Source: a virus
Taxonomy: Duplodnaviria > Caudoviricetes
Direction: 5' to 3' (one strand)
Virus record (IMG/VR): IMGVR_UViG_3300045747_000505
Length of the DNA stretch: 64,000 bases
Below are positions 1,222 through 52,236 of the stretch, piece by piece (the stretch's first letter is position 1; each line of letters starts with the position of its first letter). The notes below the pieces were generated by a model. The model was not told where the DNA came from. It ran no database searches and saw only the letters and a program-made list of their open reading frames with translations. A program made the position numbers and the translations under genes.

Positions 1222-1237
1222 ACCATGTGTTCATGGT

Positions 1238-1315
1238 CAGAGCGTAGTGTAGCCTGGCCAACATCCTCGGTTTGGAACCGATAGATCGCGAGTTCGAATC
1301 TCGCCGCTCTGACCA
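1238..1315 (+). tRNA. trnP: tRNA-Pro (TGG)
   Basis: C1:G72, A73, loop TTTGGAA, CCA. Confidence 0.93.
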
Positions 1316-1328
1316 TGAACATACATTC

Positions 1329-1439
1329 GCAAACCGCTTGTTGAAGGTTATCTTACAGATGAATGGTTCGACTCCATGGGTGACTTCGGTTGCCCTAAGC
1401 TCCGGTCGGGGAGCGACTCCTTCAGCGTCTTTTGTTTGC
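1329..1439 (+). ncRNA. Repeated structured RNA motif, copy B (internal T-loop hairpin)
   Basis: GCAAAC/GTTTGC, CGC-TTGT-TGAAGG-TTATC...CCTTCA-GCG-TCTTTT. Confidence 0.6.
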
Positions 1440-2967: not shown

Positions 2968-3098
2968 GTGGAAGTAGCTCAGTTGGTAGAGCGGCCGCCT
3001 CGTCGAAAAACACCCGTGAACGCCCCTTGTTGCGTAAGCAACCGATTGTGAATGGTTATCCAAGCAGCTCGTCGTTGGTTCGAATCCAGCCTTCCACC
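2968..3098 (+). tRNA. tRNA-Gly-like gene with a 58-nt anticodon-loop insertion (permuted motif, copy C)
   Basis: GTGGAAG/CTTCCAC acceptor, canonical D and T arms, loop starts CT and ends TCCAA, no encoded CCA. Confidence 0.65.
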
Positions 3099-3145
3099 CC
3101 GCCTTTTTTACCGATAAATAGAAGTGATTCAACAGGAGCACTTCT

Positions 3146-3796
3146 ATGGTTCAAGCAAGCAGACGCAAGCACCACTACATTTACAAAATTACGCAGGTTG
3201 ATACCGGCAGATTCTACATTGGGATGCACTCAACAGATAATCTCAACGACGAGTATTTCGGTTCTGGGAAAATCATAACCGCTTCGATTAAGAAGCACGG
3301 CAAAGATAAGTTCATCAAAGAAATTCTTGAGCACCTACCATCCCGCGAAGCACTGAAACTTCGAGAGGAGACTATTGTGAATGCCGAGTTAATCAATGAT
3401 GCCCTTTGTATGAATCTTCAGATCGGAGGTGGCGGCGGTTTTAGTAATGACGCGCACCAACGTCGATGCTCAGAAGTTGGTAAGGCACGCTTCCTTGAAA
3501 AGCTAAAGGACCCAGAGTTTGCTGCAACCTATGCAAAGACCCATAAAATTTCTACACGAAAACGTATTGACGAGGCGTGTGAAGAGTTTGGTTTTTGGCA
3601 CAACGGCTTCGTAGGCAAAAGACATAGCGCCGAATCAAAAGCCAAAATAGGCAAAGGCAATTCATTAGCACAACTTGGTGAGAGAAACTCCCAATTTGGA
3701 ACGAAATGGATGCATTTCGATAAACAAAATGTAAAAGTTAAACCGCACGAAGTGAATGATTTCCTTCAGCGTGGTTTCAACTTTGGACGAACATAG
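3146..3796 (+). CDS. GIY-YIG homing endonuclease (SegB-like)
   Basis: HYIYKITQVDTGRFYIGMHST...YFGSG; lies in tRNA cluster; TAAATA upstream. Confidence 0.9.
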   Translation: MVQASRRKHHYIYKITQVDTGRFYIGMHSTDNLNDEYFGSGKIITASIKKHGKDKFIKEILEHLPSREALKLREETIVNAELINDALCMNLQIGGGGGFSNDAHQRRCSEVGKARFLEKLKDPEFAATYAKTHKISTRKRIDEACEEFGFWHNGFVGKRHSAESKAKIGKGNSLAQLGERNSQFGTKWMHFDKQNVKVKPHEVNDFLQRGFNFGRT

Positions 3797-6922: not shown

Positions 6923-7076
6923 GCCCTTGTAGCTCAGTGGTAGAGCAATCGCCTTTTCAGGAGGGTTTATGACCCTCCTACCCTGCAGATCCTTCAAACG
7001 GTCTGCAGTCTAGGAGAGTTACATCTCTGAAGAGTAAGCGATAGGTCGACAGTTCAATTCTAGTCCTAGGGCACCA
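6923..7076 (+). tRNA. tRNA (probably Thr-TGT) with a 78-nt structured anticodon-loop insertion
   Basis: GCCCTTG acceptor, ATCGC/GCGAT anticodon stem enclosing 85 nt, T-arm, CCA. Confidence 0.7.
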
Positions 7077-7087
7077 CTCTCTCCGAA

Positions 7088-7228
7088 CCTCAATGAAAGA
7101 GTCAACCGCTTGATTGTCGGTTATCTTCACTTCGTAAAACTGAACCGAGGACGTTCGATTCGTCCGCGCCCTTTTTGGTAAAGGCGGGCAAACGTCGACG
7201 TCGCCTTTCGTTGACTCTTTCGTTGAGG
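7088..7228 (+). ncRNA. Repeated structured RNA motif, copy G
   Basis: 19-bp closing stem, AAC-CGC-TTGA-TTGTCGG-TTATC, internal GGACG-TTCGATT-CGTCC. Confidence 0.65.
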
Positions 7229-50154: not shown

Positions 50155-50354
50155 GCAGCAAGCCTTCACCAAACTCCAAGACCTGGGACCTTAGCGCAAG
50201 CAAGGTCCCAGGTTCGTCTTAGAAAGAACCTCGCGTCAGGATTCGCGAGCAACAAATAACGCCAGACCGCTGTGATACTAGCCGGAGAACCTACGTGAGG
50301 CTAGAGGAGTGCGAGATAGGATGAATATGGCTTGATCCGGACTTCGGTCCGGAT

Positions 50355-50448
50355 CTATTTCAAACACGCTGACCGAATCGCAATCGAAGGTTATCCTTTC
50401 ACGATCTCCCCTTCAACCGCACTTAACTTGTCGGCATGTTTGAAATAG
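50355..50448 (+). ncRNA. Repeated structured RNA motif, copy E
   Basis: Long closing stem; GAAGG-TTATC...GA...CCTTC. Confidence 0.5.
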
Positions 50449-50455
50449 ATTCAAT

Positions 50456-50835: not shown

Positions 50836-51471
50836 ATGCAAAAGCCACCTAAGACTTACCACTACCTTTATCGAACAACCTGTCTTGTGACAGGCAAGTT
50901 CTATGTTGGTATGCACTCAACAGACGACCTCAACGACGGTTATCTTGGGAGCGGAAAGATTTTAGGTCGCTCTCGCAAAAAGCATGGTGACGAAAAACAT
51001 GTGAAAGAAATTCTTGAACACTGTGCCTCTCGTGAAGCGCTGAAACTTCGTGAGAAGGAAATAGTCTCAGCAGAGATGCTCGCCAACCCGTTGAACATCA
51101 ATTTGAAGATTGGCGGCGAAGGCGGTTGGGATCATATACCGCAGGAGGTAGTTCTATCGAACCTCTCAAAAAGAAATGTTGGTTGGGCGACCTACAACAG
51201 ATCAGAAAAGGGAAGGCTCAAAGCCTCTGAAAACATTCGCAAGATAAATGTTGTTGGTCGAAAGTCTTCTTATGGTTTTCGTGGCAAACAACATACCGAT
51301 GAAACTAAACAAATTCAAAGCCAGCACCATCAAGGTGCTGGCAACTCTCAATACGGAACTTGTTGGGTAACCAAAGACAACAAGTCATCCAAAATCAAAA
51401 AGACTGACCTTGACGAATACCTCGCTAATGGTTTCTCGAAAGGCAGAGTAATTTCTAAAATGGTGATGTAG
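50836..51471 (+). CDS. GIY-YIG homing endonuclease (SegB-like)
   Basis: YLYRTTCLVTGKFYVGMHST...YLGSG; paralog of 3146. Confidence 0.9.
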   Translation: MQKPPKTYHYLYRTTCLVTGKFYVGMHSTDDLNDGYLGSGKILGRSRKKHGDEKHVKEILEHCASREALKLREKEIVSAEMLANPLNINLKIGGEGGWDHIPQEVVLSNLSKRNVGWATYNRSEKGRLKASENIRKINVVGRKSSYGFRGKQHTDETKQIQSQHHQGAGNSQYGTCWVTKDNKSSKIKKTDLDEYLANGFSKGRVISKMVM

Positions 51472-51587
51472 TGTAGTGGCAGCACAGAAAACATCGTTCG
51501 CGCTTTTTGTTGCGCAAGTAACCGCTTGTGAATGGTTATCTTTATCATCCAAAGCTAGGGTTGGTTCGAATCCAGCCATCACCACCA
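51462..51587 (+). ncRNA. tRNA-like RNA whose anticodon arm is replaced by the permuted motif (copy D)
   Basis: GGTGATG/CATCACC acceptor, A73, CCA, D and T arms; 31/34 nt identical to the 2968 insertion. Confidence 0.65.
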
Positions 51588-51595
51588 AAATCAAT

Positions 51596-51671
51596 TCCGT
51601 CTTAGTATTCTCGGCGAGTACCTCCGGCTGTTAACCGGATGAGTCTGGTTCGAATCCAGAAGACGGAGCCA
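51596..51671 (+). tRNA. trnN: tRNA-Asn (GTT)
   Basis: Loop CTGTTAA, G73, CCA. Confidence 0.9.
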
Positions 51672-52010: not shown

Positions 52011-52080
52011 ACCCGGTCCAATGGATTGGCTGCGGTCCTACGAAGGCTGCGTGATCGGTTCGACTCCGATACTGGGTTCA
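52011..52080 (+). tRNA. trnR: tRNA-Arg (ACG), compact D-arm
   Basis: Loop CTACGAA; CCAA-TGGA-TTGG mini D-arm. Confidence 0.7.
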
Positions 52081-52087
52081 TGATAAT

Positions 52088-52162: not shown

Positions 52163-52168
52163 AGATAC

Positions 52169-52232
52169 AGACAACCGTACGACTCAGCGTTATCCTGTTA
52201 AGATTCCCCGCTTTGTCACTCCTTTGTTGTCT
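52169..52232 (+). ncRNA. Repeated structured RNA motif, copy F
   Basis: AGACAAC/GTTGTCT, AGCG-TTATC...GA...CGCT, CCTTT bulge. Confidence 0.55.
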
Positions 52233-52236
52233 CAAT

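Follow-up and report, generated by a model that had tools for sequence, protein, structure and literature searches.

What kind of RNA is encoded by a gene that has both ends and both flanking arms of a tRNA but, where its anticodon arm would be, a hairpin of ~45 nt? The gene, here termed RNA B (Table 1), lies in a stretch of 64,000 nt of DNA from an uncultured giant freshwater phage (Caudoviricetes; IMG/VR record IMGVR_UViG_3300045747_000505), which is the window of this analysis. The original prediction had linked it to a second such RNA in the same window, copy A, and had offered two explanations, either an element that had moved between tRNA genes or a CCA-ended chimera that is functional in itself as a tRNA mimic. 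The surroundings are rich in tRNA genes, 46 of which are called by ARAGORN in the window, grouped in two arrays. RNA B receives no ARAGORN call and lies inside a tRNA array, 8 nt before tRNA-Asn, and no + strand terminator was found between the upstream endonuclease gene, RNA B and the next tRNAs. INPHARED contains no relative of the window at the DNA level beyond one tRNA and no match to an 855-aa protein of the window, and the 20 kb of L001, which is closest in protein sequence (70% identity), are free of tRNA-like genes.

The strands of RNA B follow one another as acceptor 5′ strand, D arm, distal strand of a long stem, capped helix, proximal strand, UUAU, V hairpin, T arm, acceptor 3′ strand and CCA. 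The perfect acceptor with ACCA and the D and T arms recognised at the outset are all present in the sequence, and the insert in place of the anticodon arm was found exactly as it had been written (ATCGTTC-GCG-CTTTTT-GTTGC-GCAA-GTAAC-CGC-TTGT-GAATGGT-TATC). Between the D and T arms lie 74 nt, as against a 17-nt anticodon arm plus variable loop. Folded alone, the module forms a stem of 10 bp (S1), then an internal loop with CUUUUU opposite CCGCU, and then the helix GUUGC/GUAAC with its GCAA loop. The tRNA-like core expected of YrlA, the bacterial Y RNA with a tRNA-like domain, is present: U8, A14, GG, A21, UUCGA and C61 are invariant in alignment A1. Two parts resemble those of ordinary tRNAs of the window, the D arm being identical over 16 nt to that of tRNA-His 52570 and the acceptor stem matching that of tRNA-Met 54004 at six of seven pairs plus A73. 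A decoding tRNA, which would carry between positions 26 and 44 a loop of 7 nt on an anticodon stem of 5 bp, was considered and rejected, with 69 nt between the D arm and a variable-loop-like CUAGG, and with the only 7-nt loop on a 4-bp hairpin after the long stem.

That loop, the V loop AUCAUCC, has a C at what would be position 37. The V hairpins of relatives mostly consist of a stem of 3-5 bp and a loop of 7 nt whose second position is U and whose positions 6-7 are often AA, and so resemble an anticodon loop; in many the loop reads CU-NNN-AA. Examples are CUGCUAA, CUGUUAA, CUCUUAA and AUUUUAA (L026:4092-4224, L262:8982-9109, L276:8430-8559, L257:10999-11128 and others). The V hairpin may be a variable arm of the class II type or else the vestige of an anticodon arm.

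Table 1. Coordinates in the window of RNA B, its parts and neighbouring or related features (R1, covariance model; A1, alignment; L258, L284 and L252, loci with orthologs; see text)
Feature	Position	Strand	Basis
RNA B, whole gene, tRNA-shaped Y-like RNA, 126 nt	51462..51587	+	R1 109.2 bits; Rfam tRNA 38.3 bits, insertion of 58 nt
Acceptor stem 5′ strand GGUGAUG, 7/7 pairs with CAUCACC 51577-51583	51462..51468	+	7/7 pairs covary in the family; unchanged in ortholog L258
D arm GUGU-AGUGGCA-GCAC with A14, G18, G19, A21	51471..51485	+	invariant tRNA core positions
S1 5′ strand AUCGUUCGCG, anticodon-stem equivalent, pairs with 51527-51536	51493..51502	+	minimum free energy (MFE) fold of the module alone; 5/7 modelled pairs covary; U-A to A-U in L258
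Pyrimidine-rich internal-loop strand CUUUUU; last U 51508 opposite G 51524	51503..51508	+	U.G pair, beside the bulged C, in 15/17 members
Helix 1 GUUGC/GUAAC capped by GNRA loop GCAA	51509..51522	+	5/6 pairs covary
Bulged C 51523, G 51524 (wobble with U 51508), C: CCG core, Ro-type site	51523..51525	+	A1: C62 nearly invariant, G63 invariant
S1 3′ strand UGUGAAUGGU	51527..51536	+	MFE fold of the module; covariation
UUAU, fits the YUAY conserved in YrlA where the V region starts	51536..51539	+	GGUUAUC invariant in A1
V hairpin CUUU-AUCAUCC-AAAG, 4 bp, 7-nt loop	51540..51554	+	15/15 identical in L258
T arm GUUGG-UUCGAAU-CCAGC	51560..51576	+	sequence; Rfam tRNA model; both sides of two pairs changed in L258
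Acceptor 3′ strand CAUCACC, discriminator A73 51584, encoded CCA to 51587	51577..51587	+	sequence; unchanged in L258
Copy A, paralog, tRNA-shaped RNA with the module of RNA B; D arm followed by 12 extra nt; V hairpin and encoded CCA absent	2968..3099	+	R1 100.5 bits; orthologs L284, L252
Copy D, Ro-type module in classical YrlA order; RNA ends form a stem; acceptor-like helix closed by UUCG	1325..1438	+	fold
GIY-YIG homing endonuclease gene	50836..51471	+	40-44% identity to annotated T4-type homing endonucleases; stop TAG 51469-51471 = U8-A9-G10 of RNA B

The module links RNA B to copy A. The reported identity of 31/34 nt (51507-51540 against 3027-3060) was confirmed; no other site in the window comes within six mismatches of 51507-51540, and an exact 15-mer match occurs only at both copies. 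As had been noted, differences between the two keep the GNRA loop (GUAA to GCAA) and the helix (G-C to G.U); the third changes CGA to CGC. The further claim that the tRNA scaffolds differ is correct for the acceptor and D stems, which differ by compensated changes, but not for the T arm, which is 18/19 identical. Each of the two has its own orthologs (L258 for RNA B; L284 and L252 for copy A), so that they are two old paralogous lineages rather than the traces of a module that jumped recently, and the idea of transposition is not supported.

Copy A has peculiarities of its own (window 2993-3004 and 3067-3073). Its 12 extra nt, GCCGCCUCGUCG, could pair at four of five positions with GCAGC before the T arm, and a 7-nt direct repeat, CTCGTCG, flanks the module on both sides. 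L284 and L252 keep GCCGCC and GCAGC but not the direct repeat. A reading of copy A as an insertion, suggested by the repeat and the 4/5 anticodon-like stem, was dropped, the repeat being absent from its homologs. In a homolog from a wetland metagenome the S1 strand pairs fully, and the two halves of copy A are not close to the tRNA-Thr genes of the window.

IMG/VR was scanned with a pattern consisting of GGTTATC, a gap and a T arm. The scan returned many Y-like RNAs in the classical order (..GRGCCGA..GGTTATC..) and a subset with an upstream D arm and a downstream acceptor 3′ strand, and from ten of these tRNA-ordered sequences the covariance model R1 was built. The ordinary tRNAs of the window score ≤52 bits with R1, about half of what RNA B and copy A reach (Table 1). 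R1 gives 17 members in 10 sources, and a second pattern scan adds 29 matches in 18 further viral loci, bringing the total to 46 matches in 28 loci from ~25 IMG/VR records of large phages, every one of which scores far higher than ordinary tRNAs. In the alignment of the 17 members, which was fitted to R1 so that the counts lean its way, 93.1% of pair cells are paired, compared with 34-52% when the partners are slid, and 24/29 pairs change on both sides; none of 500 shuffles reaches the observed values. Folds of the module from single sequences, which are independent of R1, agree: S1 and the capped helix form in nine of ten members, with a weaker version in copy A. RNA B thus belongs to a conserved family of tRNA-shaped RNAs of large phages. 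Its exact motif has no match in IMG/VR. In GTDB the pattern AACATC..TGGTTATC..GGTTCGA, which like the model is narrow, matched at least 120 loci, and among the matches listed none scored above the tRNA background by R1.

The ortholog at L258 is 89% identical to RNA B and comes from a record that also has a Ro60 (TROVE) gene. The acceptor stem, the V hairpin with its loop AUCAUCC and the ACCA are unchanged. One S1 pair has changed from U-A to A-U and two T-stem pairs are altered on both sides, all compensated, and an A replaces the U that faces the conserved G; in total the Ro-type module has ~14 changes. The L258 gene is flanked by tRNA-Thr on one side and tRNA-Lys on the other, and no endonuclease gene is nearby. 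A 208-nt metatranscriptome contig covers 51459-51542 at ~88% identity, as a relative of the 5′ two-thirds of RNA B, and hints that a relative of RNA B is expressed, contigs carrying neither RNA ends nor an expression level.

A comparison with Y RNAs suggests what the module is. Chen et al. (2014, PMC4201824) connect the Ro60-binding helix of animal Y RNAs, GGUC-C-GA/UU-GACC, with GNCGAAN0-1G, a motif of bacteria, and YrlA has in addition a conserved YUAY, with a UA kink in the crystal structure (PMC4201824; Wang et al. 2018, 10.1101/312249). A helix with bulged C and wobble pair is found in RNA B as GUAAC-C-G opposite U-GUUGC, and helix 1 is the counterpart of the terminal helix in ordinary Y RNAs, closed in RNA B. 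Copy A reads GCAAC-C-GA opposite UU-GUUGC, the full C-GA/UU form. The motif GNCGAAN0-1G is only partly present in RNA B (ACCGCUUG), which keeps the C-G within ACCGCU; copy A has CCGA, and some relatives, e.g. L078, have GUCGAACG. The GGUUAUC/UUAU of RNA B fits the YUAY of YrlA.

Genome content points the same way. Genes for Ro60 (TROVE, PF05731) are found in 18 of the 24 viral records with such RNAs, and in 7/7 of those that are ≥90% complete (CheckV); the six records without TROVE are fragments, 6-70% complete. Among five large records matched through ordinary tRNAs only, which served as controls, TROVE is present in 1/5, and in 0/3 of the complete ones. In four records, those of L078, L025, L062 and L069, the Ro60 gene follows the RNA on the same strand, at most a few hundred bases downstream of it. 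The distance is 2.5 kb in the record of L107, and in three relatives it is 11-100 kb.

The best explanation, to which we give a probability of roughly three in four, is that RNA B is probably a Y RNA in normal tRNA strand order, its link to Ro60 genes being drawn here from the records of its relatives. In architecture it is a YrlA whose acceptor loop is open and whose Ro stem is closed. Against this reading speak the lack of a match to the Rfam YrlA model, the incomplete GNCGAAN0-1G motif, the A that faces the conserved G in L258 and the 11-100 kb that separate RNA and Ro60 gene in three relatives. The suggestion that the CCA-ended chimera is functional as a tRNA mimic is thereby supported, by a conserved, covarying and Ro60-linked RNA family, and narrowed to a tRNA-shaped Y RNA. 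The notion that the element moved between tRNA genes is unneeded, the composite of tRNA body and module being conserved in ~25 other phage records.

A mechanism can be proposed for such an RNA. RNase P and the 3′ tRNA-maturation enzymes would cut RNA B from a polycistronic transcript, like its neighbours, to give a stable, CCA-ended RNA of 126 nt. The bulged helix would dock on the ring of a putative phage Ro60 in the manner of Y RNA stems, and the tRNA-like elbow and free acceptor end would recruit a tRNA-binding enzyme, candidates being an exoribonuclease, a CCA-adding enzyme or an RNA-repair enzyme. In infected cells this would tether or gate Ro60 for the surveillance or repair of RNA. The window encodes a nucleotidyltransferase of the CCA-adding type and an RNA ligase, which fit an RNA-repair setting.

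The module also occurs in the window outside the tRNA order. Looser copies are found at 1161-1226, 1325-1438 (copy D), 7096-7220, 50353-50450 and 52164-52234, some of them plain stem-loops, and YCUUUU is present again in other module copies. In these a strand ..AAC-CG..(bulge)..stem-UUAUC pairs with a distant stem'..YCUUUU-GUU.., and the stems covary from copy to copy (GAAGG/CCUUC, GAGG/CCUC, GUCG/CGAC, AGCG/CGCU). Copy D is predicted to fold as a four-way junction of T arm, closed 7-bp helix and D arm, with the RNA ends forming the motif-bearing stem, and this modelled fold corresponds to the published architecture of YrlA. Both wirings, tRNA order and YrlA order, therefore coexist in one phage with the same Ro module. 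The Rfam YrlA model RF02553 gives no match at E up to 10 on 51400-51650 (RNA B) or 1150-1460 (copy D), and at its gathering score it matches nothing in the window as a whole or in 13 related loci of phages. A small intron, a mobile mini-element and a promoter motif, which had been candidates for the module, were dropped after the covarying long-range partners at 1161-1438 and the family analysis.

Of the alternatives, a tRNA mimic or decoy that works independently of Ro60 survives best, although we consider it improbable. Such an RNA might be a sponge for a host nuclease that targets tRNA or for a tRNA-binding enzyme, acting by way of the elbow, the acceptor end and the V hairpin with its likeness to an anticodon loop, and with the extra arm binding some other protein. 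The pattern of conservation lends it some credit: acceptor stem, V hairpin and ACCA are 100% conserved between RNA B and L258 while the Ro-type module has accumulated its changes. The V loops of relatives are often anticodon-loop-like, and a long distance separates the RNA and the Ro60 gene in some genomes. Against this, every near-complete carrier has a Ro60 gene, with the RNA immediately upstream in four, and the module is common to the classical-order Y-like RNAs of the same phage, so that the Y RNA remains the preferred reading.

The neighbourhood of the gene invites another explanation, namely that RNA B is a non-functional chimera or pseudogene left by endonuclease-driven recombination between tRNA genes, or that the module travels with a GIY-YIG gene. 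GIY-YIG genes do touch both copies, as the original prediction stated (ORF 50836-51471 beside RNA B and ORF 3146-3796, which matches SegE_GIY-YIG, beside copy A), and the shared D arm of tRNA-His 52570, the acceptor stem like that of tRNA-Met 54004 and the nearly identical T arms of A and B are what recombination might leave. However, all stems are intact, and the differences between A and B and between RNA B and L258 are compensated. A homing-endonuclease cassette would have a fixed arrangement with its gene, but copy A lies upstream and RNA B downstream of its own endonuclease gene, and the third of the three GIY-YIG genes in the arrays of the window, which are paralogs of 38-40% identity, lies beside neither. 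A GIY-YIG homolog is absent from 17 of the 28 related loci and abuts the RNA in none of the 28, and the L258 ortholog does without an endonuclease. The chimera is accordingly very unlikely, and the endonuclease link that had been drawn is incidental, the GIY-YIG neighbourhood being context only and not part of the function of RNA B. In phage T4, homing endonuclease genes of the segB type lie within the tRNA clusters, and those of the window populate its tRNA arrays in much the same way. The likeness, GIY-YIG genes between the tRNA genes of a large phage, explains the neighbourhood and not RNA B.

The overlap of the endonuclease gene with RNA B is curious in its own right. The last endonuclease codons, GTG ATG TAG, fall in nucleotides 1-10 of RNA B (window 51462-51471), and an RNase P cut at 51461/51462 would deprive the endonuclease mRNA of its stop codon, which could limit endonuclease expression via non-stop mRNA rescue. 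Elsewhere in the arrays, ORF 1451-2089 joins an N-terminal stretch like the C-terminal part of GIY-YIG proteins to a DUF559/Vsr-like nuclease domain; within the same tRNA array, it has the appearance of a homing endonuclease that has exchanged a domain. tRNA-Pro 1238-1315 (window 1226-1325) has its acceptor stem lengthened by ~10 further bp (UGUUCAUGGU.. with ..ACCAUGAACA); this long helix is the source of a weak Rfam match to a microRNA precursor, and the gene lies between two Y-like elements. Two further tRNA-like genes are odd and without the Ro-type module: one at 2876-2965 has a 21-nt ‘anticodon loop’ with a GCGC-GUAA-GCGC hairpin, and in one at 6923-7076 an insert of ~78 nt is enclosed by an anticodon stem, AUCGC/GCGAT, that is intact.

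Even less probable, if only slightly, is a tRNA gene split by a small intron or mobile insert whose removal would give a decoding tRNA. The Rfam tRNA model sees a tRNA with an insertion, the phage encodes an RNA ligase, and copy A has its possible 5-bp anticodon-like stem and the direct repeats around the module. An intron-containing tRNA (group I or bulge-helix-bulge) should have an anticodon stem on either side of the insert, but none flanks the module of RNA B, and its removal leaves no arm at 27-43; a search at E up to 10 gave no match to any family of introns or ribozymes. Moreover, the insert is conserved and covaries with the whole RNA in unrelated phages, and the repeat of copy A is absent from its homologs. 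Least credible of all is that AACCG..GGUUAUC is a DNA-level signal (a promoter, protein-binding site or endonuclease target) rather than RNA structure, for although the motif recurs intergenically in the arrays, with some copies upstream of ORFs, all copies are on the + strand in foldable RNAs with covarying long-range partners, the sequence varies while the pairing stays, and a consensus scan for promoter-like sites gave a single hit on the + strand, at 52060-52087, 0.5 kb downstream, and none over the gene or shortly before it.

If RNA B is a Y RNA, its relatives may also bear on the origin of the permuted form. Head-to-tail tandems of tRNA-shaped Y-like RNAs, with spacings of 0-6 nt in one count and 0-41 nt in another, are seen at L025:1064-1318, L062:1024-1285, L036:8968-9232 and L282:2333-2772. 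If reading starts halfway through one copy and stops halfway through its neighbour, a tandem has exactly the order of YrlA: Ro strand, V, T arm, acceptor helix closed by the spacer, D arm and Ro strand. This suggests how the permuted form could arise, and the tandem copies offer a concrete route from tRNA to YrlA. A ‘dimeric tRNA’ origin for YrlA has reportedly been proposed by Sim and Wolin. It is tempting, if speculative, to suppose that tRNA-shaped Y RNAs are the un-permuted source of classical YrlA, and that the conserved acceptor, CCA and V hairpin may let some of them be recognised or charged by tRNA enzymes. If so, the origin envisaged by Sim and Wolin would be seen in living genomes, and recognition or charging would give Ro60 a direct connection to translation or to the repair of tRNAs.

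The conservation of Ro60/Y RNA particles extends from bacteria to humans, and both the effector and the origin of the tRNA-like domain of bacterial Y RNAs are still sought. A tRNA-ordered family with a free CCA, and presumably with tRNA-like processing, is a simpler object for the effector search. The putative partner RNAs of Ro60 also join the items hidden in phage ‘tRNA arrays’, where tRNA finders skip them or call them as odd tRNAs.

Phage Ro60 proteins and Y-like RNAs are already known in the literature. No published description of a one-piece, tRNA-ordered Y RNA with an encoded CCA was found in the literature on YrlA and phage Ro60, and no Rfam model matches the tRNA-ordered Y-like design. 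With the vertebrate Y RNAs (GGUCCGA/UUGACC) RNA B shares a helix with a single bulged C, followed by G.U (plus A-U in copy A) and then an internal loop. It differs from them in that its helix has only 5 bp, is capped and is not built from the termini, and in that the effector module is a full tRNA body. A phage system is that of Thermus phage phiLo, in which a phage Ro60 is found with the phage Y-like RNAs Yrl1 and Yrl2; both binding and the recruitment of host PNPase were shown for them (PMC12135203). Common to both phages would be the combination of phage-encoded Ro60 with phage-encoded Y-like RNAs, whereas Yrl1 and Yrl2 were chosen by a CGAA motif beside the gene and are not described, in the available part of that account, as tRNA-shaped with a CCA end.

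YrlA (RF02553) has the tRNA-like, L-shaped domain with D and T arms and core nucleotides, a stem with the Ro60 site at the position of the anticodon stem and YUAY before the V region, and it shares with the present family a genomic tie to Ro60 genes and an occurrence in phages. Its strand order is circularly permuted, however: YrlA ends in the Ro stem and is described as having a closed acceptor loop and no free CCA end, ‘resembling circularly permuted tRNAs’ (10.1101/312249). RNA B has instead an open acceptor end with encoded ACCA and a Ro stem capped by the GNRA loop GCAA, its GNCGAA is reduced to CCG and the Rfam model is unmatched. Among the YrlA RNAs in these accounts, that of M. smegmatis alone is cleaved by RNase P and gains CCA in vivo, and an open, CCA-ended Y RNA therefore has a precedent. 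The end product there, bound by Ro60 and shaped like a tRNA, has a CCA tail and an open acceptor stem of 7 bp, much like what is proposed for RNA B, but it consists of two paired pieces from a cut closed loop, whereas RNA B would be a single encoded chain flanked by tRNAs.
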